Below are positions 1,704 through 14,338 of a DNA stretch of 14,338 bases, one piece after another. The number at the start of each line of letters is the position of its first letter. The first letter of the stretch is position 1. The notes beneath the pieces are model-generated. The model was not told the origin of the DNA and did no database searches. It worked only from the letters and a program-made list of their open reading frames with translations. Source of the stretch: Campylobacterota bacterium (GTDB lineage Bacteria; Campylobacterota; Campylobacteria; Campylobacterales; Sulfurimonadaceae); the NCBI GenBank assembly GCA_034717975.1, contig JAYEMF010000078.1, positions 1 through 14,338 on the forward strand. Direction: 5' to 3'. A program made the translations under genes and the position numbers.

Positions 1704-3476
1704 ATGCAGACAATAACCTGGCGTACCCTTTTACAAGAGACCAAGCCTTTTCGCAAAAAGATCATCATCGGACAACTGATTGCAGTAGTGGCAGTTATTG
1801 TGAGTCTGCCGATCCCGCTGATGTTTCCGTTGCTGATCGACCAGGTACTGCTTGATCAGCCGGCATGGCTGGTCCGTACGCTTGAACGGCTTTTTCATCC
1901 GGATGAGCCTTATATATATATTCTGATTGTACTCTTCACGACACTCTTTTTACGCTTTGGTTTTTCCACTCTCAATATTTTGCAGTCCCGTCTGTTTACC
2001 ATCGTTTCCAAGAGTATGGTCTTTTTTATAAGAAAGCGCATTCTTGAACATCTGAAAAAGGTCTCTGTTGCCGAGTATGAAGCGCTTGGCGGGGGCGGCG
2101 TAAGTGCGAAACTGGTGACAGATATCGATACGGTTGACACCTTTGTCGGGGTAAGTATCGGGCGATTTATTGTCTCATCACTCTCCATGATCGGAATTGC
2201 CGGGGTGCTGCTTTACATTAACTGGCAGTTGGCATTGATTATTCTGATCATGAACCCGTTGGTCGTGACGGTCACGGTGATGCTTGGACGTCGCATACGC
2301 AAATTGAAACGTACGGAGAACCAGAAGATCGAGTCGTTTCAGAACAAGCTCTCCGAGACACTTGATCTGTTTGTGCAGATCAGGACGCATAATCAGGAGG
2401 AGCGTTACATCGCTTCAATGATCGAGAATGCTGAAGATATAAGAAAAGCGTCAAGTAGCTTTGGCTGGAAAAGTGACGGGGCCTCTCAGCTCTCCGGCTT
2501 TATCTTTCTGACTGGGTTTGAATTTGCCCGGGCGGCAGCGATGATCCTGGTACTCTTCTCCAACCTCTCTATCGGTGAGATGTTTGCCGTGATGGGCTAC
2601 CTCTGGTTTATGGTGACACCGCTGCAGGACCTGCTTCAGATCATCTTCTCCTACCAGAATGCCACCAGTGCCCTTGAACGTCTCAATGCGCTTCTTTTAC
2701 TGAAACAGGAGCCGGAGTATCCGCATCTGCATAATCCTTTTGAGGTAAACAGTACCAATACCATTGAACTGGAGAATGTCAGCTTCGCTTACAGTGAAAA
2801 AGAGGTGCTGCATAATGTCACCATAAAGATTCCAAAAGGTAAAACTGTCGCCCTGCTTGGGCATAGCGGCAGCGGTAAGACAACACTGGCACATGTCATT
2901 CTCGGACTCTATCCTGCATCTTCCGGAGAGATACTTATTGATGGGATTCCTATGACACAGATAGGGCTTGATCGATTGCGTGAACATATAGCCCTTGTTC
3001 TGCAGACACCGCGAATGTTCAATGATACCCTTCGTCACAATCTCACACTGGGGCGTGATATTCCTGATGCTACACTGTATGAAGCACTGCATGTGGCGCA
3101 ATTGGGTGAAGTGGTGGAAAAACTGACCGATGGTCTTGATACGCTTATCGGCAAAGAGGGAATCCGCCTCTCGGGCGGTGAGCGTCAGCGGCTGGCTATT
3201 GCCCGGATGCTGGTCTCTGAACCCAATGTGATCATTCTGGATGAGTCGACATCGGCACTCGATATCCACACTGAAAATGATCTCTTCAGATCGCTCAGAG
3301 GCTATTTGGAAGGCAAAACAATGCTGATCATCGCACACAGGCTCAGTACTATCGAACATGCCGATCTGGTCTATGTGATGAAAGAGGGAAGGGTGATCGA
3401 GTCGGGTACGCCTGCCGAGCTACTGGGGCTGGGCGGTCACTATCACGCTTTTGTCAATGACCAGAAACGCAGTTAA
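1704..3476 (+). CDS. ABC exporter, fused permease/ATP-binding subunit (MsbA/Sav1866-like half transporter)
   Basis: N-terminal multi-TM domain; Walker A GHSGSGKT, Q-loop LVLQ, signature LSGGERQR, Walker B IILDESTSALD, H-loop IAHRLST. No C39 peptidase domain. Confidence 0.95.
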   Translation: MQTITWRTLLQETKPFRKKIIIGQLIAVVAVIVSLPIPLMFPLLIDQVLLDQPAWLVRTLERLFHPDEPYIYILIVLFTTLFLRFGFSTLNILQSRLFTIVSKSMVFFIRKRILEHLKKVSVAEYEALGGGGVSAKLVTDIDTVDTFVGVSIGRFIVSSLSMIGIAGVLLYINWQLALIILIMNPLVVTVTVMLGRRIRKLKRTENQKIESFQNKLSETLDLFVQIRTHNQEERYIASMIENAEDIRKASSSFGWKSDGASQLSGFIFLTGFEFARAAAMILVLFSNLSIGEMFAVMGYLWFMVTPLQDLLQIIFSYQNATSALERLNALLLLKQEPEYPHLHNPFEVNSTNTIELENVSFAYSEKEVLHNVTIKIPKGKTVALLGHSGSGKTTLAHVILGLYPASSGEILIDGIPMTQIGLDRLREHIALVLQTPRMFNDTLRHNLTLGRDIPDATLYEALHVAQLGEVVEKLTDGLDTLIGKEGIRLSGGERQRLAIARMLVSEPNVIILDESTSALDIHTENDLFRSLRGYLEGKTMLIIAHRLSTIEHADLVYVMKEGRVIESGTPAELLGLGGHYHAFVNDQKRS

Positions 3477-3760
3477 GCTATTCTGACATTAAAGACATTG
3501 ACAAGGTTTAGATCTTTAAGGATACCGTAGAGACGCTCATCCGATACTTTCATGGAGACACGGACACCATCTTTTTGAATGACTTTGTTGATATAGCCGA
3601 TGACCGACGAGGTCATGGACATGGAGTTGTCAAGGATGAACTCGACACTGTTCCCGGTAGTGGTAATTGTATCGACCGCGTTTTTGATCTCCTGAAAGTC
3701 CTGAATACTTTTAATGTTTCCATCTATGGTGATGGTTGAACCGCTTCTTGTCAGTGTCAT
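3473..3760 (-). CDS. Stand-alone STAS-like protein (anti-sigma-factor antagonist family)
   Basis: 95 aa with a STAS-like pattern: ITIDGNI, SMTSSVIG (equivalent to FMDSSGLG, candidate phospho-Ser51) and ILKDLNLVNVFNV. AAGGA RBS at 3770-3774; ATGA overlap with the upstream gene. Confidence 0.75.
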   Translation of the reverse strand: MTLTRSGSTITIDGNIKSIQDFQEIKNAVDTITTTGNSVEFILDNSMSMTSSVIGYINKVIQKDGVRVSMKVSDERLYGILKDLNLVNVFNVRIA

Positions 3761-5817
3761 GTTGTTGATTCCTTTTGTTTAGATGTAGTTGAGATTTTGT
3801 TAATGGTAAAGACGCTGTTCCCTTTGGCATTGTAGTAGATACCGTTGGAAGACCTTCTGCTGATGTAAACTCCCCTTCCGTTAAAGTTGTTGGCCCGGTA
3901 GAAGATGTCGTGAAGCAGCTGGGTGTCAAAGCCTTCTCCTTCATCGGTGATCATCGTGACAAGATAGTTATGACCAAGATGATCGATATTATAGAGGTTG
4001 ATGAGGGTCTGTTTATCACACTCCTGCTCTCTTTCACCCAAAACGTCCCAGTAGTCACCGCTTTCGATCAGATGATGTTTCTCTCTACCGGTAATCCCAA
4101 GGTTACCGTGCTCGTAGGCATTGAGCAGGAGCTCGGTGAAGGCATATCCGGCATGATCAAGCAGCTCCTGGTTATGGTAGTAGGAATCCAGCTGCTCGGC
4201 ATACCACTGATCGGCTTCGCCGAGCGCACTCATGGAGCAGGAGATGGATTTTGTTGCAATAAGGTGCTTTTCAAATTCGAATTTGCTCAGAAAAATAAAG
4301 GTCATATCATCTTCCTGGGGACCAAGCCTCTCTTCAATTGCACGGTGCATGTCATCACGGGTCAGGGCTTTTGAAAAGTCTTCTTCGATATAGCTCATAT
4401 AGAGATCATCGGTATCTTTTAGACTGTTTTCAACCAATCCGTCACTGTAGATCAGTGTCTGTCTGATCATTTTCCCATTCAACTGATCTATCTTGAAATC
4501 GCTTCCGTATTTGCTGATAGGTGGATTGTTGGAAGGGGTTTTGTGAATGTTGCCTTTATAATCGAGTGTCAGGATGGCAGGCATGGAGAAGCTGGCATAC
4601 TCGAAGAGGTGATTTGGACGGTCCACCCTGATGAAATGGGCAGAGACGATCTCATCTTCAAGTAGAATGGGGCGAATATAGGCAAGGGCTTGAGTGATGA
4701 TGGGATCTAGCGACAGCGGTTTGTTATGGTGAAGTGCCTGATCGATCGTGTGATTGATATAGGCAGTAAGGAGCATGGCAGTCAATGAAGCTGAGACGCC
4801 TTTACCCATACCGTCGATGATCATATAAAAGTTTATATCATCCCCAAGACGGCGAATGCTGTATGTGTCACCACATAAGATATCTAAGGGTTTATAGTAG
4901 GAGTCGATGAGGCATACACCGTCTCTGATCTCATCATCACATAGTTTATAGTAGTAGTCATTGCGGATGATGTTAAGCTGCTTTTTAAAGGCAAGCTCCT
5001 CCTGATAGGAACTGTACTCTTTGTGTTTTTCAAGCCGTTCGCGTTCCACTTCCCGTTCGGTCACATCATAACGTATCGAGATAAATTCGATGACCTCGCC
5101 GCTGGTATCTAAAATAGGGATGATGGTCGAATCAGCAATGAAAGAAGAGCCTGATTTTGTCTGGTTCTTAATGATGCCGTGCCAGTGCTCTTTGTTCTGA
5201 ATAGTCTGCCACATTGCTTTGAATGTCTCTTGTGGTGTATCGGGGTGACGAACGATATTGTGCTGTCTGCCGATCAGCTCCTCGTGCGAGAAACCGCTAA
5301 TCTCACAAAAGGCATCATTGGCATAGGTGATGATGCCTTTTGGATCCGTCTTGGTTACCATAGAACTGACATCGACAACCGCTTTGTACTCATTGAGGAG
5401 ATGTCGGCTCTTTTTGAGCTCTTTTTGCAGGAGGATCTTCTCACTGACTCTCTTGAATGTATCATTAAGTTCGGTCATATTGACCGGTTTTAAAAGATAG
5501 TAGTGAATTCCACTTCGAATAGCCTCATGCAGATACTCGCTTTCGTTAAAGGCTGATGAGATAATGATGGGTGTGTCGGGATTTAGTTTCTGAATCGCCC
5601 GACTCATTGTCAGACCGTCCATACGCGGCATCTGGATATCGGTCAGCACTATGTCTGGATGATGCTCTTTGTAGAGGGTTAGCCCCTCTTCACCATCAGA
5701 GGCAATGAAAAGTTTTTGGCAGAGAGGTTTAAAGATCTCTGCAATAATTTCCTGGGTATGAGGGTCATCTTCCACATAGAGCAGTGTTAGTTCCTTCAAA
5801 GAGGGAAGTTCTGACAA
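3757..5817 (-). CDS. Hybrid response regulator: REC-PAS-PP2C(SpoIIE) phosphatase-GHKL (RsbW-like) Ser kinase
   Basis: REC: YVEDD, LTDIQMP (D60), LLKP. PAS: TDPKGIITYANDAFCEISGFS..ELIG..HNIVRHPD. PP2C: CGDTY, IDGMGKG, YSDGLVE, EDDMT. GHKL: FTELLLNAYEHG, ITDEGEGFD, GRGVY. The TTG start lies 3 nt after the MCP stop. Confidence 0.88.
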   Translation of the reverse strand: MSELPSLKELTLLYVEDDPHTQEIIAEIFKPLCQKLFIASDGEEGLTLYKEHHPDIVLTDIQMPRMDGLTMSRAIQKLNPDTPIIISSAFNESEYLHEAIRSGIHYYLLKPVNMTELNDTFKRVSEKILLQKELKKSRHLLNEYKAVVDVSSMVTKTDPKGIITYANDAFCEISGFSHEELIGRQHNIVRHPDTPQETFKAMWQTIQNKEHWHGIIKNQTKSGSSFIADSTIIPILDTSGEVIEFISIRYDVTEREVERERLEKHKEYSSYQEELAFKKQLNIIRNDYYYKLCDDEIRDGVCLIDSYYKPLDILCGDTYSIRRLGDDINFYMIIDGMGKGVSASLTAMLLTAYINHTIDQALHHNKPLSLDPIITQALAYIRPILLEDEIVSAHFIRVDRPNHLFEYASFSMPAILTLDYKGNIHKTPSNNPPISKYGSDFKIDQLNGKMIRQTLIYSDGLVENSLKDTDDLYMSYIEEDFSKALTRDDMHRAIEERLGPQEDDMTFIFLSKFEFEKHLIATKSISCSMSALGEADQWYAEQLDSYYHNQELLDHAGYAFTELLLNAYEHGNLGITGREKHHLIESGDYWDVLGEREQECDKQTLINLYNIDHLGHNYLVTMITDEGEGFDTQLLHDIFYRANNFNGRGVYISRRSSNGIYYNAKGNSVFTINKISTTSKQKESTT

Positions 5818-5820
5818 CGG

Positions 5821-7800
5821 TTATACTTTAAACTGGTTCAGCTCTTGTTTGAGCTCATTGGATGAGTTGGCAAGTTCAGTCGATATATGTTCTACGGTAC
5901 GGCCCAACTCTTCATTATCGCTGGCTGCAGAGACAATGGCTTCCATGGCTGTAATGAGCTCTTTTGTACGGGTTGCAATATAGGTACTTTTTGTCATGAC
6001 AGCGGTTGACTTTTCACTGGTGACACCAAGTTTTTCTTTGGTGTCCTGGGCATCAGAACTGAGAGTCTGTGCTGATGATGAGATCTGATTCATATCTTGG
6101 GATGTGTGCTCCGTATCACTTGAGATCTCATGAATGTTTTGAGTGATAAGGTTGACATTGGCGCTGATCTCGCTCAGGCTTTTTTGTGTGCGTTCTGCCA
6201 GTTTTCTGACCTCATCGGCAACAACGGCGAAGCCGCGTCCATGTTCACCTGCACGGGCCGCTTCAATAGCTGCATTGAGGGCCAGGAGATTGGTCTGGTC
6301 GGCAATATCACCGATGATGGTAAGAACTTCCTGAATATTTTTGGCCTGTTCCGTCAATGAGTTTACTTTGGTGACAAGATCGTGCTGGCGGTTGGTTCCC
6401 TCTTCGATGCTGTTAACGACATTGTCCAGTTGACTGACAAAAGAGTCGAGTGTGTCTACCGTGATTTCAAGATCTTCTACCGTCGTGATCGATGCTTCTT
6501 CAACACTGTTTAGTTGTGCGCCTACATCGGTAACGAGGGTGTCGACACTGGCGATCTCATTTTTTTGATTTTGGATATTTGCAACAAGATTGTCAATGAT
6601 CTCATCCAGTTTGGTACTTTGCTGTGCGGTAGAGTGGGAAACAGTTGTAGAAGCTTGAATGCTCTGCTGGAAGGCGGCGATCATCTCATTGACTGCGAGG
6701 GCGATATGTGCCAACTCATCCTGCTCATTATGGGTGTCGATCGGAGCAGAGAGATCTTTGGTCGAGGCGATGGTCTGGATCTGTCTGAGGCTGTCAGCCA
6801 CCGAACTGTTGATGCCACGTCTGACCCAGAGAAGGATACCGATCAGGGCAACACCAAATACGATAGAGAAGAGGAGCATTGTAGCCGCTTCAGTATTGGC
6901 CTGAGAGTTGAGTTTTTCAATAGTCTCATCATTGATCTCGGCAATGGTGTCATCAATTCCTTTGAGGACATTGATCTTTTTGGTGATCGTTTTGAACCAG
7001 TGTACGGCATCGGTGTTGAACCCACCGCTGATGGCATTCTCCCGGGCGACCGTTCGCATCGCATCAACCGCACTGACACTCGGGTCTTTCATCCCATTGT
7101 TAAACGAAGCAAGCATCTTCTTATCAGCCAGTGCAACAAAGGAGTCGGCATAACTTACCTGTTCGGCAACAAGGGTGATCCATTTGGCGAACATGCCCGG
7201 TCCGAAAGAGTCCTGGGCAAAGGTTCCGCTCAGTACGGCACGCTCGATCCCTGCACGCTCTTTAGATTTCAGGAAATTGGTATAGGCCGAGAGGGATTTG
7301 ACCAGTTCCGCATTTTGGCTCAGCTTGGCATTGAGACCGGCCACATTAAGGATGTGGCGGTTCATAGTAGTATAGAAGACGACCGCATCTTTGACAGAGG
7401 CTTTGAGTGATTTGACATCGGAGCGCATGGCCTCAATTCTGGAGAGGTAGTTGTTTACTTCATTGATCTCTTTTTGGAGCTCGCCGGAAAAATCATTTAA
7501 ATCCATTGTGTTCAAATAACTTTTATACTCATTGTGGCGTTTATCGGTACTGCTGTGCTGTGCAGGGAGGATATCAACGAACTTTGTCCCTTTTGAACCG
7601 ATGAAACCGGCACTGGCACCGCGCTCTTTTTGCGTTTCGTGGATAAGAAGGCTCAGTTTTTTGGAGAGTCCATTGAGGACAGAGATCTCTTGAAGCTGCT
7701 GTTTTTCTGTTACGGCAGTATAAACAGTTTTACCAATGTTCAGCACAACAAAGATAGAAATGAGTAGAACCATCAGGTTCAGCTTTTGTTTGATCGTCAT
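5821..7800 (-). CDS. Methyl-accepting chemotaxis protein with periplasmic NIT (nitrate/nitrite-sensing) domain
   Basis: Two TM segments flank a sensor domain carrying the NIT-type motifs HETQKERG and [15 protein letters not shown] ([13 protein letters not shown]) and signalling hairpin [46 protein letters not shown] at 7809-7813. Confidence 0.93.
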
Positions 7801-7905: not shown

Positions 7906-8388
7906 CTATAGGCCTAAAAGCTCTTTTGACACGGTTATGATACCATCACCATCTGCCAGGAGATAGTCACCGTTTCGAAAGGTGACATTTCCAAAGCTGA
8001 GTTCAATGTCCCGTTCACCCGGCTTTTTATCGTGGCTTTTGCGTGGACAGGTGCCCAGCGCCCAGAGTCCGACCGGAATGGTGGAGGTGATATGCGTATC
8101 ACGGACATAGCCGTTGATGATGATACCGGCCCAGTTGTTGTCCCGGGCAAACTTCATCAGGTTTTCGCCCACAACGGCATAATAGGCCGTATTGACGTCA
8201 ACCACAGCGATACGTCCGTTTCCGGGTTCTTTGAGCATGGTAATAAGATCAGTGTTCTCATCATTCAGTTTAAGTGTCGCGACGGGACCGTAACATTTTT
8301 CAGCCCCTCCATAGGATTTATATTCAGGTGTTAAAACCTGTACCTTTTCGCGATGTTCATCACAGATGTCTGCAGTGAAAAATTTCAT
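7906..8388 (-). CDS. rraA: RraA-family protein (RNase E inhibitor / HMG aldolase-oxaloacetate decarboxylase fold)
   Basis: Motifs TADICD, YGG...C.GPVATLK, PGNGRIAVVDV, AVVGEN, WAGIIINGYVRD and GDYLLADGDGII; 160 aa. AAGGA RBS at 8394-8398. Confidence 0.9.
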   Translation of the reverse strand: MKFFTADICDEHREKVQVLTPEYKSYGGAEKCYGPVATLKLNDENTDLITMLKEPGNGRIAVVDVNTAYYAVVGENLMKFARDNNWAGIIINGYVRDTHITSTIPVGLWALGTCPRKSHDKKPGERDIELSFGNVTFRNGDYLLADGDGIITVSKELLGL

Positions 8389-8403
8389 ATTTTTCCTTAT
8401 TTT

Positions 8404-8483
8404 GGGAAGAGGGAAGGGGGAAGAGGAAAGAGGCTGAGGCGTACGCTCTTTTTTCTCTTCCCACTTTCCCCTTTCCTCTTCAC
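8404..8483. repeat. Heptamer-built purine/pyrimidine inverted repeat
   Basis: Left arm 8404-8432 is GGGAAGA GGGAAGG GGGAAGA GGAAAGA G; the reverse complement of right arm 8455-8483 is GTGAAGA GGAAAGG GGAAAGT GGGAAGA G (24 of 29 match). A perfect GCGTACGC palindrome sits in the loop (8439-8446). Confidence 0.85.
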
Positions 8484-8494
8484 TTTATTGAGGG

Positions 8495-8556: not shown

Positions 8557-8961
8557 ATGAAAGTTGTAACAGGCGTAGTCGGTAACGATATCCACGTTGT
8601 CGCCAACAGGCTGATCGATATCTCGCTTGAAGAGCGCGGATTTGAGGTCTTTAATCTTGGGGTAAACACCTACCTTGAGGAGTTTATGGATGCGGTGATC
8701 GAGACCGATGCGGATGTACTGCTGATCTCGTCACTCAATGGTGAAGCAGAGGGTTGGTGCCGTGACCTTCAGATACTCAAAAATCAATACGATTTTCGTG
8801 ATGTCGTCTTTATGATCGGCGGTAATCTTGGTGTGGGTGAGATGGACTCGGAAACGCTGGTGCCAAAATTTCAGAATTATGGCTTTGACCTGGTCTTTCA
8901 CCAGGTCGATCTAAATGAAGGGCTGGACCAGCTTGAAGCCTTTTTGGAGGCGCGCCGATGA
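8557..8961 (+). CDS. glmS: Glutamate mutase (methylaspartate mutase) sigma subunit, B12-binding
   Basis: 134 aa; base-off/His-on motif DIHVVA (DxHxxG variant), SSLNG and IGGNL, as in clostridial GlmS/MutS/MamA. ATGA overlap with glmE. Confidence 0.92.
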   Translation: MKVVTGVVGNDIHVVANRLIDISLEERGFEVFNLGVNTYLEEFMDAVIETDADVLLISSLNGEAEGWCRDLQILKNQYDFRDVVFMIGGNLGVGEMDSETLVPKFQNYGFDLVFHQVDLNEGLDQLEAFLEARR

Positions 8962-10319
8962 GCCTGCTGCAGCGCGAACGCGAGATTATTGTCAATAACG
9001 AATATATTGACAATTTTGATTTCGACGAGGTCAAAGCCTTTATCAAGGGGGCGAGCAAAGACCTCTTTATCTCCCATAAATTTAAAACCTCCAACGAGAT
9101 GCTGGTCCAGCCGCGCGGCGGTTTTCCGACCTATGAGAAGGTGTTTCAGCTTTACAAAGAGTTCAAAGAGGCCAATGTCGATGTCCTTCCGTTGACCATC
9201 GACTCCAACACCCGCCTCAACGACTATGCCAGTGCCAAAAAGATGCTGGCCCTCTCCGAAGAGAATGATGTCGATATGCTAAACGGCTACCCGCTGGTCA
9301 ATCACGGCTACCGTACTACGCGCAAGATGATCACGCATTACAATACTCCGGTGAGTCTGCGTCACGGTACGCCGGATGCTCGTCTGCTGGTCGAGACGGC
9401 GCTCGCTTCGGGGATCTTCGAGATCGAAGGCGGTCCGATCACCTACCTGCTGCCATACTCCAAAAACTTCCCGATGGACAAGGCCTTTTTGTACTGGAAG
9501 TATGTCGAGCGTGTCTGTGCCGCTTACTCTGACCTGAATGAACCGATCAACCGTGAGTCATTCGGACCACTCAGTGCGACACTTCAGCCGCCTGCCATTG
9601 TCATTGTCATTCAGCTTCTTGAGATGCTCCTTTCACTCGAAGAGGGGGTCAAGTCCTTCTCGGTCAGCTTTTCACAGACCGGTTCGATGACGCAGGACAT
9701 TGTCTCCTCCATCGTGATCAAAAAACTCGCACGTAAATATGCCGACAGGTTCGGTCATGAAGATGCGACGATCAACCTTGTCTATCATCAGTGGATGGGA
9801 GCCTTCCCTTACAATAAAGAGTATTCGGATTCACTCATCAACACCTCGACGGTCATTGCCGCGATGGTCGGTGCCGACAAGATCATCACCAAGACCCGTA
9901 ACGAAGCTTTCGGTATTCCGACCAAAGAGGCCAATGCGATGGCGGTCGCCAATGTCAAGTACACACTGGGGATGCTTAAAGGGCTGCCGGTAGTGGGTGA
10001 TGAGGAGGAAGAGGAGAACCTCACCAATGAAGTCGATGAGATCCTCGAAGCGGTCTTTAACGACGGTGCCGATACCCTCTGGCGGCAGGTGTTCAATGCG
10101 ATTAAAAAGGGGTACATCGATATCCCGTTCTCGCCTCATATCATCAATGCCAACGAAGTGATCACTATTCGTGACCCTGAGAGCAACATTCGCATCCTTA
10201 AAAAAGGAAACCTTCCGATCTCAGATAAAAGTTTCGCCTTTGAGCAGTCCAAAATCAAACTGGCTGAAGGTGAACGCGTGGTGGATAAGATTATAAAAGA
10301 TATAGGGATCATGTTATGA
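8958..10319 (+). CDS. glmE: Glutamate mutase (methylaspartate mutase) epsilon subunit
   Basis: Motifs QPRGG, LPLTIDSNTR, LNGYPLVNHG, RHGTPDARLL, EGGPITYLLPY, NRESFGPL, HQWMGAFP and ITKTRNEA match GlmE/MutE/MamB, including the three substrate-binding Arg and the catalytic Glu. Confidence 0.95.
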   Translation: MSLLQREREIIVNNEYIDNFDFDEVKAFIKGASKDLFISHKFKTSNEMLVQPRGGFPTYEKVFQLYKEFKEANVDVLPLTIDSNTRLNDYASAKKMLALSEENDVDMLNGYPLVNHGYRTTRKMITHYNTPVSLRHGTPDARLLVETALASGIFEIEGGPITYLLPYSKNFPMDKAFLYWKYVERVCAAYSDLNEPINRESFGPLSATLQPPAIVIVIQLLEMLLSLEEGVKSFSVSFSQTGSMTQDIVSSIVIKKLARKYADRFGHEDATINLVYHQWMGAFPYNKEYSDSLINTSTVIAAMVGADKIITKTRNEAFGIPTKEANAMAVANVKYTLGMLKGLPVVGDEEEEENLTNEVDEILEAVFNDGADTLWRQVFNAIKKGYIDIPFSPHIINANEVITIRDPESNIRILKKGNLPISDKSFAFEQSKIKLAEGERVVDKIIKDIGIML

Positions 10320-11497
10320 GTAAACTGTTTATAGACATCGGCAGTACCTACTTCAAAGTGGCTGAGAACGGTACTATCAAGCAGTATTTCAGAGACTTCA
10401 ATAAAAACATTTTCGATGATCTGAACAGCAGATGTGCGGATGTCGTCAGCCGTTATGCCAAAGAGGATATCCATATCTGTAGTTCGGCCAACGGCGGTCT
10501 GAGTACGCTGATCGTCGGACTCACCAACTCGTTCAGCCTCAAATATGCAATCAATATTGCGTTTAACTCGGGAATCAATATCATCGATACGGTGCTCTAC
10601 CCGAAGATCGAGAGTTATACACCGCCGATGGAGATGATCGATGTTGTCATCGTTGTCGGAGGGATTGACAGTGTCGAGAACGTTTTTGACGTTAAGTTGC
10701 TGAACTATCTTGAAGGTGTGAATTATCAGAATATAGTCTATGTCGGCAGTGAAAAGAACCGAGCCTTTCTTCAGGATAATCTTGAAAACCTCGTGGTACT
10801 TGAAAATATCATCGACGATAAACTGAAAATTCGCGAAGAGGCACTGAAGCATTACCTGACCGATCTCTATCAGGCCGATATTGTGGGGAAAGAGGATATC
10901 AAGCAGCTCTATGCGATCACCTCCAACCAGATATTCTCGACCCCTTACATCGTCAACCGCTCTCTGCCGAAGATCAATGAACGTCTAGATGTCGTCGATC
11001 CGTTTATCGTGGTGGACATCGGCGGAGCGACGACAGACATTCACTACAGCCGCGACCTGGTGAATGACAATATCCTCACCGAGAGCGGGTACGACCGCCT
11101 GGTCTTTAAAAAACTGGGAGTCTATAAATCACGCGAAAGCCTGGTGCATACGGCGAAGCACAATGAATTTGTCTATGAACTGCTGGGGCATCTGAATGTA
11201 ACCGAGAACATTCTCGAAGAGCAGAGTGAAAAAGCGACGCGCATCCTCATGCAGCTATCTATCTTTTTGGTACTTTACAAAGTCTCCAAGCATCATGCCG
11301 CCTACATCGAGCTCAATCTCGACATCCTCAACAGTATTGTCCTGACCGGCGGAATTACGAAAGTGTTGAGTTCTGAGGAAGTGCATGAGATCATCCTCTT
11401 CTTCTACAAGAAGATTCTTCATTTCCATCACACACCGACAATCCTGCTTGACAGTGATTATGAGATCTGGACCTATGGAATTAAAGATGATGTTTAA
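10316..11497 (+). CDS. glmL: Glutamate mutase L protein (ASKHA-type ATPase, putative mutase reactivase/chaperone)
   Basis: IDIGSTYFK, CSSANGGL, VGGID and VVDIGGATTDIH motifs of GlmL (clostridial MutL, unrelated to mismatch-repair MutL). ATGA overlap with glmE. Confidence 0.88.
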   Translation: MSKLFIDIGSTYFKVAENGTIKQYFRDFNKNIFDDLNSRCADVVSRYAKEDIHICSSANGGLSTLIVGLTNSFSLKYAINIAFNSGINIIDTVLYPKIESYTPPMEMIDVVIVVGGIDSVENVFDVKLLNYLEGVNYQNIVYVGSEKNRAFLQDNLENLVVLENIIDDKLKIREEALKHYLTDLYQADIVGKEDIKQLYAITSNQIFSTPYIVNRSLPKINERLDVVDPFIVVDIGGATTDIHYSRDLVNDNILTESGYDRLVFKKLGVYKSRESLVHTAKHNEFVYELLGHLNVTENILEEQSEKATRILMQLSIFLVLYKVSKHHAAYIELNLDILNSIVLTGGITKVLSSEEVHEIILFFYKKILHFHHTPTILLDSDYEIWTYGIKDDV

Positions 11498-11504
11498 TAC
11501 GCAA

Positions 11505-11580
11505 ATCGCACTGGTGCGATGGGCTTTCCGCCGAGGAAAACCAAGTGTTAACGTAGATCAAAACATTTATTTTTTTGATC
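11505..11580 (+). promoter_or_regulatory. Three consecutive short inverted repeats in the glmL-ligase spacer
   Basis: ATCGCA-ctgg-TGCGAT (11505-11520), TTTCC-gccga-GGAAA (11525-11539) and GATCAAAA-N9-TTTTGATC (11556-11580). Function unknown. Confidence 0.4.
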
Positions 11581-11612
11581 GTGTCCAAATGAATGGTATC
11601 AAGGAGTAAATT

Positions 11613-13187
11613 ATGTCAGTAAACAGTATTCGAAACTTATTGGAAATTGCCGCTCAAACAGAGCCAGAGAAGATTGGACTTATCCACGGAACCGAGAGAT
11701 ACAGCTATGCGGAACTCCTGAGCAAAGTCAATCAGATCGCACACTACCTTACGACGATCGGTCTGAAAAAAGGGAGTCGCATCGGCATCTACTCCAACAA
11801 GAGCACCCAATCCGTTATTGCGATCCTTGCTGTTCTCTCGACTGAGTATGTCTTTGTTCCGATTACCAGACTGCTCAAACCTGAGCAGGTCAAGCACATC
11901 ATCGATGATTGCGGTATCGAATGTCTGATTACTGACAAGGCGAAGATAGAGAGCATCAAAGCGATCGATTTTAAGGCCAAGATCATCTCTTATGAAGCGA
12001 CAGATGAGAGTGATGTCTCTTTTGAAGAGATTTACAAGTGCTATACCGGTGAGATTGAGTCTGAGATCAAAGGGCATGACAATGCGGCGATTACCTACAG
12101 TTTCGGTTCGACGGGGAACCCGAAAGGGATCGTGATCGACCATCGCGCGCTCATTGACGGAGCACGCATTGTCTCAAAGTACCTCGATATCAAAAGTGAT
12201 GATGTTATCTCCGGCATACTCTCCTTTAACCTTGATTACGGACTCAATCAGATCTTTACGACGCTCTATAAAAAAGCGACACTGGCCATTCATAAATTTG
12301 TCTTGCCAAGCGACTTTTTCACCCATCTCATCAATGACAAGATCACAGTACTGCCGCTGATGCCGATCCACATCACACAGATGTTCGATGAAGACCCTCA
12401 TCGAATCCCTCAGCCAGAACACTTTAAAAACCTGCGGACCATTACATCATCGGGCGGCAATATCACCCCGCTGATGATCAAAAATATTACGACCCATTTC
12501 CAAGATGCCAGTTTCTACTCGATGCATGGTCTGACCGAGGCGTTTCGTTCAGCCTATCTTGACCCAGGCCAGATCCATATCCGTCCCAACTCAATCGGTA
12601 AAGCGATCCCCGATGTAGAGCTCTATATTGTCAACGAAGCGGGCGAAGCGTGCAAACCGCGTGAGGTTGGCGAGCTGATCCATCGTGGTGCCTGTATCTA
12701 TAAAGGGTACTGGAATGCACCGGAAGAGACGGCGCAGCGTTTTAAAAGTATCGGCATCCTCGACAAGGTGATTCATCCGGAAGGGCAGTTAACCGATGAG
12801 ATCGTCATCGCAAGCGGTGATTATGTCTATGCCGATGAAGAGGGTTATATCTACTTCGTTTCGCGTAAGGACGATATGATCAAAACCCAGGGCTTCCGTG
12901 TCAGCCCGCACGAGATAGAGAGTGTTGTCTATGCGAACATCCAGGCGATCACCGAGTGTGCCGTCTTCTCTGTACCGAATGAGGAGATCGAAGAGGAGAT
13001 CGTCATGGTCTATGGAGCCAAGAGTGAACTGGCACGCAACGAGATCCTTTTTGAACTGAAAAAACATCTGCCAAACTATATGCTTCCTGAGCAGATCATC
13101 TATAAAAAAAGTATGCCGCTTAAATCGCTGCATGAGAAGCAGGTCGATAAAGAGGCGTTGCGAAAAGAGTTTCTGGAAATTCTTTAG
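11613..13187 (+). CDS. AMP-forming adenylation enzyme (ANL superfamily; resembles exosortase-associated acyl-CoA ligase / stand-alone amino-acid adenylation enzymes)
   Basis: P-loop YSFGSTGNPKG, A4 NLDYGLNQ, A5 SMHGLTEAFRS, SIGKAIP, GELIHRG...KGYW, SGDYV, RKDDMIKTQGFRVSPHEIE, LPNYMLP. Strong AAGGAG RBS at 11601-11606. Confidence 0.9.
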   Translation: MSVNSIRNLLEIAAQTEPEKIGLIHGTERYSYAELLSKVNQIAHYLTTIGLKKGSRIGIYSNKSTQSVIAILAVLSTEYVFVPITRLLKPEQVKHIIDDCGIECLITDKAKIESIKAIDFKAKIISYEATDESDVSFEEIYKCYTGEIESEIKGHDNAAITYSFGSTGNPKGIVIDHRALIDGARIVSKYLDIKSDDVISGILSFNLDYGLNQIFTTLYKKATLAIHKFVLPSDFFTHLINDKITVLPLMPIHITQMFDEDPHRIPQPEHFKNLRTITSSGGNITPLMIKNITTHFQDASFYSMHGLTEAFRSAYLDPGQIHIRPNSIGKAIPDVELYIVNEAGEACKPREVGELIHRGACIYKGYWNAPEETAQRFKSIGILDKVIHPEGQLTDEIVIASGDYVYADEEGYIYFVSRKDDMIKTQGFRVSPHEIESVVYANIQAITECAVFSVPNEEIEEEIVMVYGAKSELARNEILFELKKHLPNYMLPEQIIYKKSMPLKSLHEKQVDKEALRKEFLEIL

Positions 13188-13189
13188 CC

Positions 13190-14143
13190 ATGCGGCTTTT
13201 TAAAGCAGCTCTGAGCGGCCTTTTTGCTGCTTTCTTGACAGTGCTGCTGATCTTTGGCAGCTGGGTACTCTGGGAGCGAAACCGTGACCCATTTGTCGCC
13301 GTTGACTTTTACCCCGGAAAAGTGAGCCTCTCTGATGACACCTCCTACACCATAGCATTTTCTGATCTCCGCAACAGATCATACCGTCACATCATTTTGT
13401 CAACGGAGCATCTGGGCGATATTGAAGCATTTATCTCTCAGCCAAAGGTGATTCCTCCCAATGGGCTTCCTATCGTTATTATTATGGGTGGTCTCGAGGT
13501 AGGCAGGGATGACTTCAAGCTCATTCCCGATCCCGGAGAAAATATCTATATTATCTTTAAATACCCCTATACTCCGGAGTACTGGTATGAAGGGGCGCCT
13601 CTTGTCGAGATTCCCGTGATCAGAAAATCGGTTTTAAGTGTGCCTTCCCAGGCATTGACGCTATACAGATGGGCCTCTGAGCAGCCGTGGGCAGAAGAGA
13701 GGCGGGTGTTATTTACCGGTTTCAGCTTCGGTGCGATGTTCCTGCCTGCCATTTATCATCTTGCTGCAGGACATGATGAAGCGCTCAATCCAGGTGTCAT
13801 CGCCTATGCGGGGGTGGATATATCGGATATTCTCTATACTAATCTGGAGGAACTTGAAACACCATGGCGCTCACTGGCGGCATGGCTGGGTGAAACGGCT
13901 ATCTATGGCGTTGAACCGGCACGCCATCTGCCCTATACCAAAAATGATTTTTTGCTTATCAACGGGACAAAAGATCATCAGATATCACCCTACAGCTGGA
14001 AAAGACTGCATCAATTGACACCTGATCCAAAAACAGTCGTGATTCTCAACGAGGGGCATATGCATCCCCGTAAACCTGAATTGACCAGAAAACTGGTCAA
14101 AATCAGCAGGGAGTGGCTGCTGGAACGAGGATTGGTTAATTAA
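13190..14143 (+). CDS. Membrane-anchored or exported alpha/beta hydrolase
   Basis: Hydrophobic N-terminal helix (about aa 6-28), oxyanion-like MGGL, nucleophile elbow GFSFG (S179), NGTKD (D262) and EGHMHP (H290). Starts 2 nt after the ligase stop. Confidence 0.8.
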   Translation: MRLFKAALSGLFAAFLTVLLIFGSWVLWERNRDPFVAVDFYPGKVSLSDDTSYTIAFSDLRNRSYRHIILSTEHLGDIEAFISQPKVIPPNGLPIVIIMGGLEVGRDDFKLIPDPGENIYIIFKYPYTPEYWYEGAPLVEIPVIRKSVLSVPSQALTLYRWASEQPWAEERRVLFTGFSFGAMFLPAIYHLAAGHDEALNPGVIAYAGVDISDILYTNLEELETPWRSLAAWLGETAIYGVEPARHLPYTKNDFLLINGTKDHQISPYSWKRLHQLTPDPKTVVILNEGHMHPRKPELTRKLVKISREWLLERGLVN

Positions 14144-14277
14144 GGGTTTTTCTTTTCAGCCCGCTCTTTTTTCTTATAGAGTTTCAGATCTTTTTTTACC
14201 TGTTGACGCAGCTCTTTTTTAAGCATATTCTTGAGCTCTTTTTTTACGAACTTGTTCAGCTTTTTCTTGTCAATCAT
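14140..14277 (-). CDS. Small lysine-rich hypothetical protein (45 aa), not in the ORF track
   Basis: Hand translation: MIDKKKLNKFVKKELKNMLKKELRQQVKKDLKLYKKKERAEKKNP*. Preceded by AAGGA-tcagtt-ATG; its stop overlaps the hydrolase stop (TTAA at 14140-14143). Confidence 0.65.
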   Translation of the reverse strand: MIDKKKLNKFVKKELKNMLKKELRQQVKKDLKLYKKKERAEKKNP

Positions 14278-14338
14278 AACTGATCCTTTTTTTTGAGGTT
14301 AACCTATGATAGATCAAATGAACTTATCAGTTAATTAA

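Follow-up and report, generated by a model that had tools for sequence, protein, structure and literature searches.

A glutamate mutase gene unit with a VinN-like adenylation enzyme in Campylobacterales, and its predicted role in activating 3-methylaspartate

Gene content of the locus

The window analyzed in this study is the whole of contig JAYEMF010000078.1 (14,338 nt), which ends 195 bases past the hydrolase gene. Its relevant features are the following:

7906–8388, minus strand: gene for an RraA-like protein of 160 aa, in divergent orientation to glmS; the module's fifth conserved member
8557–8961, plus strand: glmS, encoding the sigma (B12-binding) subunit of glutamate mutase, 134 aa
8958–10319, plus strand: glmE, encoding the epsilon (catalytic) subunit of glutamate mutase, 453 aa
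10316–11497, plus strand: a comparatively short and divergent ATPase of the glmL/mutL type (393 aa)
11498–11612, plus strand: glmL–ligase spacer (115 bases), unusually long for the module
11613–13187, plus strand: stand-alone adenylation enzyme (ANL ligase, 524 aa) with a VinN-like pocket, predicted to activate 3-methylaspartate
13190–14143, plus strand: membrane-anchored alpha/beta hydrolase (317 aa), adjoining the ligase here only; not a conserved member

The sequence-only reading had placed glmS, glmE, glmL, an ANL ligase and a hydrolase on one strand, and the ORFs are indeed found at these positions, all on the plus strand. According to the ORF coordinates, the glmS/glmE and glmE/glmL junctions each overlap by 4 bases, in agreement with the translational coupling claimed for these genes, and 2 bases separate the ligase stop from the hydrolase start. 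The accompanying claim of intact active-site motifs stands with one qualification, in that the DxHxxG motif of GlmS reads D-I-H-V-V-A. The glmL–ligase spacer carries AAGGAG upstream of the ligase ATG, as well as a stretch of 36 bases that recurs on contigs C86 and C111; in relatives, the corresponding gap is mostly about 5–25 bases by locus coordinates.

Conservation and membership of the module

The genes glmS, glmE, glmL and the ligase are collinear in all 36 other GlmE-bearing Campylobacterota genomes (20/20 and 16/16 loci), a recurrence that places this arrangement far beyond chance. When loci were seeded with the ligase, glmL was located upstream in 64 of the 67 with enough upstream DNA, and all three glm genes were present in 52/58, while two to six ligase-seeded loci (L115, L122, L079, L080, L129 and L139) are without some or all glm genes. 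The synteny that the sequence-only reading had proposed to examine across Campylobacterota is thus conserved. Across the 98 loci compared, the five genes of the module are the only ones that recur (in 90, 83, 74, 66 and 57 loci), and the next neighbour family appears in 9. The module occurs in 17 or more genera of Campylobacterales from vents, seeps and brines, with hosts that belong mostly to chemolithoautotrophic lineages. The source genome, that of a sulfur-oxidising bacterium, belongs to family f1, yet its GlmE is 94% identical to that of f4 genomes versus 72–80% to that of other f1 genomes, which speaks for mobility of the module. A literature search found no description of the module, Campylobacterota included, in line with the earlier statement that no such pathway was known for this phylum.

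The divergent RraA-like gene is a member of the module that the sequence-only reading overlooked. Its product is a full-length family match (PF03737, 125 bits; NF006875, 157 bits), and the gene is present in 37/37 GlmE genomes versus 2/364 others, adjoins the module in 31 of the 36 fetched loci, and has a distribution that tracks the mutase module rather than the species tree. Relative to the RraA/HMG-CHA aldolase family (E. coli RraA 1Q5X, T. thermophilus 1J3L), the match extends over the full length and the protein retains the catalytic Arg-Asp pair found in class II pyruvate aldolase/oxaloacetate decarboxylase relatives: Arg96-Asp97 aligns with the RD of 1j3l, 2pcn, 1nxj and 3c8o, whereas E. 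coli RraA has Arg-Gln (RQ) at this place. R96, D97 and K117 are invariant in 7/7 aligned orthologues. According to PMC5065237, members of the RraA family that carry the RD pair are likely class II pyruvate aldolases, and, in the P. putida enzyme, Arg-123 is catalytic and Asp-124 metal-binding; of the acidic metal ligands, one, Asp97, is assigned in the RraA-like protein. A further difference from E. coli RraA lies in the genomic setting, since a search for RNase E/G (PF10150) gave no match in the source genome (G000, 99.9% complete), although the same search was positive in six control genomes; the role of an E. coli-type RNase regulator therefore cannot apply. Given the retained RD pair and the lack of RNase E, we read the RraA-like protein as a keto-acid enzyme and not as an RNase regulator.

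The hydrolase, in contrast, is a local addition of the source genome and stands outside the pathway to which the sequence-only reading had assigned it. It is not found beside the module in any of the 36 other module genomes (0/20 and 0/16) or in the 67 ligase-seeded loci, and it occurs in 1 of 401 sampled genomes. Its sequence gives a weak Peptidase_S9 match (19.9 bits), and its family comprises about 110 clusters without names, with relatives in unrelated phyla that are without the module. That it nevertheless serves the module, for example by releasing or transferring an activated 3-methylaspartyl group, is very unlikely. Its place on the strand of the ligase, whose stop lies 2 bases before the hydrolase start, the contigs from four runs of one study that bridge the ligase–hydrolase junction, and its serine-nucleophile elbow (G-F-S-F-G) speak for such a role; against it are its absence from the loci of relatives, the module-free phyla in which its own relatives occur, and an N-terminal membrane helix, which suggests a domain outside the cytoplasm.

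Mutase subunits and adenylation enzyme

Glutamate mutase (EC 5.4.99.1) is known in two settings, in the breakdown of glutamate together with an ammonia-lyase, and in large actinomycete antibiotic clusters, to which it supplies 3-methylaspartate. The GlmE of the module passes the Pfam cut-off for PF06368 (396 bits, cut-off 26.6), falls just under the NCBIfam equivalog cut-off of TIGR01503 (381.7 bits, cut-off 390.1), and matches PDB chains 6h9e_B and 1cb7_B at 282 bits. In C. cochlearium GlmE, the residues that hold glutamate are Arg66, Arg100, Arg149, Glu171, Tyr177 and Tyr181; a phmmer alignment to 6h9e_B shows that the equivalents of all six are identical, and these positions form invariant or near-invariant columns among 75 orthologues. 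With this full glutamate-binding site, the mutase should interconvert L-glutamate and (2S,3S)-3-methylaspartate. GlmS scores above the cut-off of NF002612 (166.5 bits, cut-off 110), and its closest PDB chains are those of GlmS/MutS, 1be1 and 1i9c. Within the B12 signature DxHxxG...SxL...GG, the Asp, His, SxL and GG elements are kept and the Gly of the first element is replaced by Ala, a form that is invariant in 73 orthologues. The GlmL-like protein matches PF13941 with 94 bits over residues 4–298 and NF040745 with 77 bits, below the cut-off of 475, and in relatives its gene keeps its place between glmE and the ligase gene.

The ligase belongs to the ANL superfamily by its match to PF00501 (217 bits) and by its AF2 model (pLDDT 81), which has the ANL fold. 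Among curated families, TIGR03098 (acyl-CoA ligase, AMP-forming, exosortase A system-associated) is by far the best, yet its 480.4 bits are below the cut-off of 592.35; the next family reaches 257 bits. Over its full length, the PDB matches are led by NRPS A domains, with VinN about tenth and at low identity. VinN (PDB 3WV4/3WV5/3WVN) is the 3-methylaspartate adenylation enzyme of the vicenistatin starter-unit pathway in Streptomyces halstedii, which also comprises the mutase VinH/VinI, the ACP VinL and the PLP decarboxylase VinO (PMC11284099, PMC11253843). When the pocket region of the ligase (residues 190–335) was searched by itself against 177,635 PDB sequences, the VinN chains were the sole matches at E<=0.001; this restriction of the match to VinN, within all solved structures, is a new observation of this study. 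D208, Y209, S280 and R312 of the ligase align with D230, F231, S299 and R331 of VinN, at the same spacing after the TE motif and in an alignment without gaps from the TE motif through RPxSxG, around both motifs. Thus, four of the five VinN substrate-contact residues are identical or conservatively replaced, the Asp and Arg among them. The roles of D230, F231, S299 and R331 in VinN are described in the review PMC11253843; K330 and a shortened beta13-beta14 loop also characterize the VinN pocket. The fifth position, K330, is Phe311 in the ligase, so the two pockets differ, and L-aspartate or a different acidic amino acid is also a possible substrate. D208, Y209, S280, F311 and R312 are invariant in 26/26 orthologues. 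The A10 catalytic lysine is found at a non-canonical place (K-Q-V-D-K), and in a few orthologues both candidate positions lack a Lys.

The VinN-only match of the pocket region supports an assignment of the ligase to the amino-acid type, neither fatty nor aryl; an enzyme restricted to fatty or aryl acids, an outcome that the sequence-only reading had regarded as fatal to its proposal, is not what the comparison with PDB sequences suggests. Another reading is that the ligase acts as a CoA ligase on another acid or on one without an amino group, such as a methyl-branched dicarboxylate in the manner of MatB, or that the mutase works on a glutamate analogue, in which case the product would be something other than activated 3-methylaspartate. 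The family name of TIGR03098, the high Foldseek ranks of malonyl-CoA synthetase MatB and benzoate-CoA ligase as structural matches of the ligase model, the position of GlmE just under the equivalog cut-off and the divergence of GlmL are consistent with this reading. We consider it improbable, however, as the amino-group-binding Asp is invariant, the pocket matches VinN alone, the full-length sequence matches are led by NRPS A domains, and GlmE keeps all of its glutamate-contact residues.

Proposed pathway, fate of 3-methylaspartate and cofactor supply

The claim that the mutase stands apart from the fermentation pathway is borne out: methylaspartate ammonia-lyase is absent from the window, and the search of the 99.9%-complete source genome proposed earlier (PF07476, TIGR01502) returned no gene beyond a partial weak match at the end of contig C16 (44/37 bits; TIGR01502 cut-off 286). 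Neither mal nor mesaconase genes are carried by the module at any of the 98 loci. Compared with clostridial glutamate fermentation (glmS-glmL-glmE-mal), homologues of GlmS, GlmE and GlmL with identical substrate-binding residues are shared, whereas the order in the module is S-E-L, the ligase takes the place of the lyase and the ammonia-lyase is not found genome-wide. Kinship of the mutase with the clostridial enzyme, which is of the same family, is what would favour a modified form of catabolic glutamate fermentation or of the methylaspartate cycle with its missing steps encoded elsewhere; against these absences and the mostly chemolithoautotrophic character of the hosts, we judge such a variant exceedingly improbable.

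We consider it probable, from the sequence comparisons above, that the divergent RraA-like gene followed by glmS-glmE-glmL and the adenylation enzyme constitutes, in Campylobacterales, a self-contained unit of five genes that moves laterally, converts glutamate to 3-methylaspartate and activates it with ATP through the VinN-like ligase. The mutase would interconvert L-glutamate and (2S,3S)-3-methylaspartate, and the ligase would bind the latter in the fashion of VinN: handled as a beta-amino acid, the substrate would be held at its amino group by Asp208 and at its free alpha-carboxylate by Arg312. The reaction with ATP would then yield the C4 acyl-adenylate, and the mutase equilibrium would thereby be pulled from glutamate. 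The sequence-only reading had also pointed to ACP/PCP and PLP decarboxylase genes, of which we found neither a dedicated carrier nor a VinO-type decarboxylase. No carrier protein, decarboxylase, transferase or aminotransferase recurs with the module at the 98 loci, the ACPs of the source genome are located in other clusters away from it, and no orthologue of the TIGR03099 decarboxylase was found in that genome, where the best match (216 bits, cut-off 478) is probably LysA. This also separates the unit from TIGR03098 systems, whose members presumably adjoin a TIGR03099 decarboxylase and an ACP. Since no carrier, decarboxylase or transferase accompanies the unit, the acyl group may be accepted by CoA, by an amine, or by a carrier that is a housekeeping protein or is encoded far from the unit, and the RraA-like protein may act on a keto-acid derived from the pathway.

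A different use of 3-methylaspartate would lead to 2-oxobutyrate for isoleucine or propionyl units, by way of 3-methyloxaloacetate formed by a general aminotransferase and then decarboxylated by the RraA-like protein, leaving the ligase a side or salvage role. The co-occurrence of the RraA-like gene with the mutase and the aldolase description of RD-pair relatives (PMC5065237) fit this route, and, according to bioRxiv 10.1101/2025.08.26.672309, a 2-ketobutyrate-auxotrophic E. coli is rescued by methylaspartate, presumably via transamination and beta-keto-acid decarboxylation. The same study reports the decarboxylation as spontaneous, however, and no aminotransferase recurs with the module at the 98 loci. 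Moreover, the source genome encodes a full threonine dehydratase (TIGR01127, 535.7 bits, above cut-off), so the route is unneeded for isoleucine, and it gives no role to the VinN-like ligase, the most tightly linked gene. We therefore regard it as unlikely.

The reading of the unit as a 3-methylaspartate-activating pathway can be extended, more tentatively, to a complete portable pathway for an undescribed 3-methylaspartate product in free-living, mostly chemolithoautotrophic Campylobacterales. The C4-adenylate might then be passed to CoA, an amine or a macromolecule without a dedicated carrier, and the RraA-like protein might be a new pathway enzyme. With the vicenistatin system, the module shares a B12 glutamate mutase beside a stand-alone adenylation enzyme; it differs in being without the ACP, PLP decarboxylase, second adenylation enzyme, acyltransferase and PKS, in adding the RraA-like gene and glmL, and in forming a portable five-gene set in Campylobacterales instead of a large cluster. 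The mutase, the VinN-like enzyme and the RraA-like protein thus represent a minimal unit from which the usual downstream machinery is absent. Knowing what it makes would extend the fates of 3-methylaspartate by a new one and supply a first function for an RraA-like protein among bacteria without RNase E, a question that is directly testable because the ligase is small, soluble-looking and easily assayed.

Cofactor supply is a further aspect of this unit. The source genome possesses corrinoid uptake genes and CobU/CobS/CobC-like genes for remodelling, and neither of the corrinoid adenosyltransferase families PF01923 and PF02572 was found in it, which leaves the AdoCbl source of the mutase unexplained. 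Across five complete module genomes, PF01923 occurs in 0/5 and PF02572 in 1/5, so that four are without any recognised adenosyltransferase. Given this lack in most carriers, the short GlmL-like ATPase or the RraA-like protein may also take part in the loading or recycling of the adenosyl cofactor, a role that belongs to the same tentative extension, and identification of the product would explain why B12 scavengers keep an AdoCbl enzyme without a known adenosyltransferase.

Composition, conservation and boundaries of the module

The source assembly (2.52 Mb, 149 contigs, 99.9% complete) carries, on the contig that is the entire window (C78), a unit made up of a divergent RraA-like gene, the glutamate mutase genes glmS-glmE-glmL and an ANL-superfamily ligase. 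The genes of this module and the hydrolase beside it are the following:

7906-8388, minus strand (divergent from glmS): RraA-family gene, by family match
8557-8961, plus strand: glmS, an ORF
8958-10319, plus strand: glmE, an ORF
10316-11497, plus strand: glmL, an ORF
11613-13187, plus strand: ANL-superfamily ligase, an ORF
13190-14143, plus strand: alpha/beta hydrolase, an ORF

Four-base overlaps join glmS to glmE and glmE to glmL. The ligase is preceded by a spacer of 115 bases (11498-11612) with a good Shine-Dalgarno sequence, whereas the corresponding spacer in relatives is mostly about 5-25 bases long. A 36-base piece of the spacer also occurs on contigs C86 and C111, and another strain from the same metagenome samples has a short glmL-ligase junction (loose end at 11613). 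An Rfam scan of the window (E<=1) gave no riboswitch or other known RNA, and the counts from a promoter and terminator scan were not above those of shuffled sequence. Between the RraA-like gene and glmS (8403-8485) lies an 80-base purine-rich/pyrimidine-rich hairpin (RNA fold -58 kcal/mol, z -4.4). The miRNA-like Rfam matches there are spurious and reflect the long hairpin; since its GA-rich arms turn up again on many other contigs, the element resembles an intergenic repeat dispersed through the genome.

The sequence-only reading had joined the ligase to the mutase, and this linkage is borne out by relatives. Of the 401 genomes sampled from the phylum, 37 have GlmE; they represent 17 of 64 genera and a single order, and no GlmE was found in the two largest families, with 276 genomes between them. 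The other 36 carriers all show the collinear order glmS-glmE-glmL-ligase (20/20 and 16/16). A second sample, of 78 loci, was seeded with the ligase; their record titles either point to Campylobacterota lineages or are silent on phylum. Of the 67 loci that have sufficient DNA, 64 carry glmL upstream; the complete trio of glm genes was counted in 52 of 58, and the RraA-like gene, divergent, in 41 of 50. When all ORFs of 98 loci were clustered, only five gene families recurred (90, 83, 74, 66 and 57 loci), the next commonest neighbour family after the module's five appearing in nine. The flanks vary between lineages. Upstream in the window (3473-7800, minus strand) are a NIT-domain chemoreceptor, a response-regulator/PAS/PP2C(SpoIIE)/HATPase-like protein and a 95-aa ORF; a matching trio lies beside the module in one Sulfurimonadaceae MAG (L091:494-4817), where no RraA-like gene adjoins it.

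There are exceptions to this arrangement. Two loci have the ligase without other module genes, AAA_15 (OLD-like) ATPase genes stand between glmL and the ligase, with glmS and glmE lost, in loci L079, L080 and L139, and a 4.5-kb insertion separates glmE from glmL in two loci; the module is an insertion target. In one genome, an ankyrin-repeat protein and a RelE-like toxin pair sit between glmE and glmL (L044:9379-13583, same record as L086). GlmE of the source genome is 94% identical to that of genomes of another family, as against only 72-80% to the four other carriers in its own, consistent with the unit having moved laterally.

The alpha/beta hydrolase, which had been counted as a third component, proved not to belong: it is present at none of 67 ligase-seeded loci, and the source genome is its sole carrier among the 401. 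The protein, with a membrane helix at its N-terminus and a serine elbow, falls in a small unnamed family. Its start follows the ligase stop by two bases, and 195 bases separate it from the contig end. No RNA run is listed for the stretch; it is contained in four DNA runs only, all from one brine-metagenome study, whose contigs cover the ligase-hydrolase junction and the remainder of 10300-14338, one of them extending past the window end; the junction is real in the sampled population. A very lysine-rich 45-codon ORF (14140-14277, minus strand) is convergent with the hydrolase, with a four-base overlap at the hydrolase stop.

Glutamate mutase, its cofactor and the RraA-like protein

GlmS scores above its NCBIfam equivalog cut-off, GlmE matches its Pfam family at 396 bits and falls slightly below the TIGR01503 cut-off, and GlmL is short and divergent. 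Aligned to the epsilon subunit of Clostridium cochlearium, GlmE is identical at every residue that holds glutamate there, namely the three arginines, Glu171, Tyr177 and Tyr181. The B12 motif of GlmS keeps its aspartate and histidine and reads DxHxxA rather than DxHxxG; the alanine, invariant in the 73 orthologues compared, is a clade marker. We read the enzyme as a true glutamate mutase belonging to a separate clade. The earlier proposal that this mutase is not tied to fermentation held when the whole genome was searched with two models of methylaspartate ammonia-lyase, which gave only a weak partial match at a contig end.

For the cofactor, the genome has B12 uptake genes (contig C148), with a TonB-dependent receptor and BtuF/BtuC-like genes, as well as CobU, CobS and a CobC-like gene. 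It gave no match to the corrinoid adenosyltransferase families PF01923 (PduO/EutT-type) or PF02572 (CobA-type); among five complete carrier genomes PF01923 was matched in none and PF02572 in one, and neither was found in four of the five (G364, G291, G191 and G324). Besides GlmS, B12-binding domains occur in a MetH-sized protein, two small corrinoid-type proteins and a 509-aa protein.

The RraA-like gene belongs to the module: the protein occurs in 39 of the 401 genomes, namely all 37 GlmE carriers and only two genomes without GlmE. It has retained an Arg-Asp pair at the site of Arg-Gln in E. coli RraA, which is non-catalytic, and seven orthologues show no variation at R96, D97 or K117; in the Pseudomonas putida aldolase, as described in PMC5065237, the arginine stabilises the pyruvate enolate and the aspartate binds the metal. 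A whole-genome search did not find RNase E/G. A rival reading, with isoleucine as the end, takes 3-methylaspartate through 3-methyloxaloacetate to 2-oxobutyrate, a route known from feeding experiments in bioRxiv 10.1101/2025.08.26.672309. The RraA-like protein would have a function in such a route, but the ligase would be left without explanation, and the idea is weakened by a bona fide threonine dehydratase, IlvA, in the genome. With the model for citramalate synthase, the genome yielded no more than a LeuA-like match of 80 bits. Complex prediction for the ligase with the RraA-like protein returned a score of 0.00, which weighs neither for nor against their pairing.

The ligase pocket and candidate partners

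Public annotations name the ligase merely 'AMP-binding protein', and literature searches gave no paper that connects glutamate mutase with these bacteria or with a set of RraA-like protein and adenylation enzyme. The best curated family for the ligase is TIGR03098 (exosortase-A-associated ligase; 480 bits, below cut-off), and Haft 2006 makes no mention of the ligase/decarboxylase context. The AF2 model (pLDDT 81) has the ANL fold, which Foldseek supported without resolving adenylation (A) domains from CoA ligases. Whole-length PDB matches begin with NRPS adenylation domains and reach VinN, the 3-methylaspartate adenylation enzyme of the vicenistatin pathway, at about tenth place. VinN was likewise not top in a PDB profile search with the ligase alignment, but a search with the pocket sub-region placed it first: with residues 190-335, the specificity pocket, as query, no PDB sequences other than VinN chains 3wv4/3wv5/3wvn match at E<=0.001. 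Between the TE motif and RPxSxG the alignment of the two proteins is ungapped, so the ligase has VinN's short loop as well. The pocket residues pair as follows.

Pocket residues of VinN and of the ligase (pocket alignment; chain numbering offset of 16)
VinN D230: ligase D208
VinN F231: ligase Y209
VinN S299: ligase S280
VinN K330: ligase F311 (not kept)
VinN R331: ligase R312

In VinN these five residues allow (2S,3S)-3-methylaspartate to bind as a beta-amino acid, as PMC11253843 describes, and 26/26 orthologues keep the ligase residue at all five positions. The aspartate with which A domains bind the amino group of the substrate is kept in the ligase and invariant; the A10 lysine is displaced. 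Giant NRPSs dominated the matches listed for a representative-library search with the ligase, among which a single further stand-alone cluster, from Arcobacteraceae, appeared at 60% identity.

In vicenistatin biosynthesis, according to PMC11284099, VinN loads the ACP VinL and the PLP enzyme VinO decarboxylates the tethered amino acid; the module, in contrast, has no accompanying ACP or decarboxylase across the 98 loci. The only DAP-decarboxylase-type matches in the source genome look like housekeeping enzymes. PP-binding matches number five: the protein on contig C91 is probably the housekeeping AcpP, and the other four lie in a pyruvate dehydrogenase island, a ketosynthase pair, an Aas-like fusion and an aryl-polyene-like cluster. 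This last cluster (contig C139, 17300-28200; L169) encodes an aromatic amino-acid ammonia-lyase, a ketosynthase, an ACP, a ketoreductase and acyltransferases, together with a truncated-looking AMP-binding protein and a lipid A-type acyltransferase, and it adjoins the only AcpS-type phosphopantetheinyl transferase seen.
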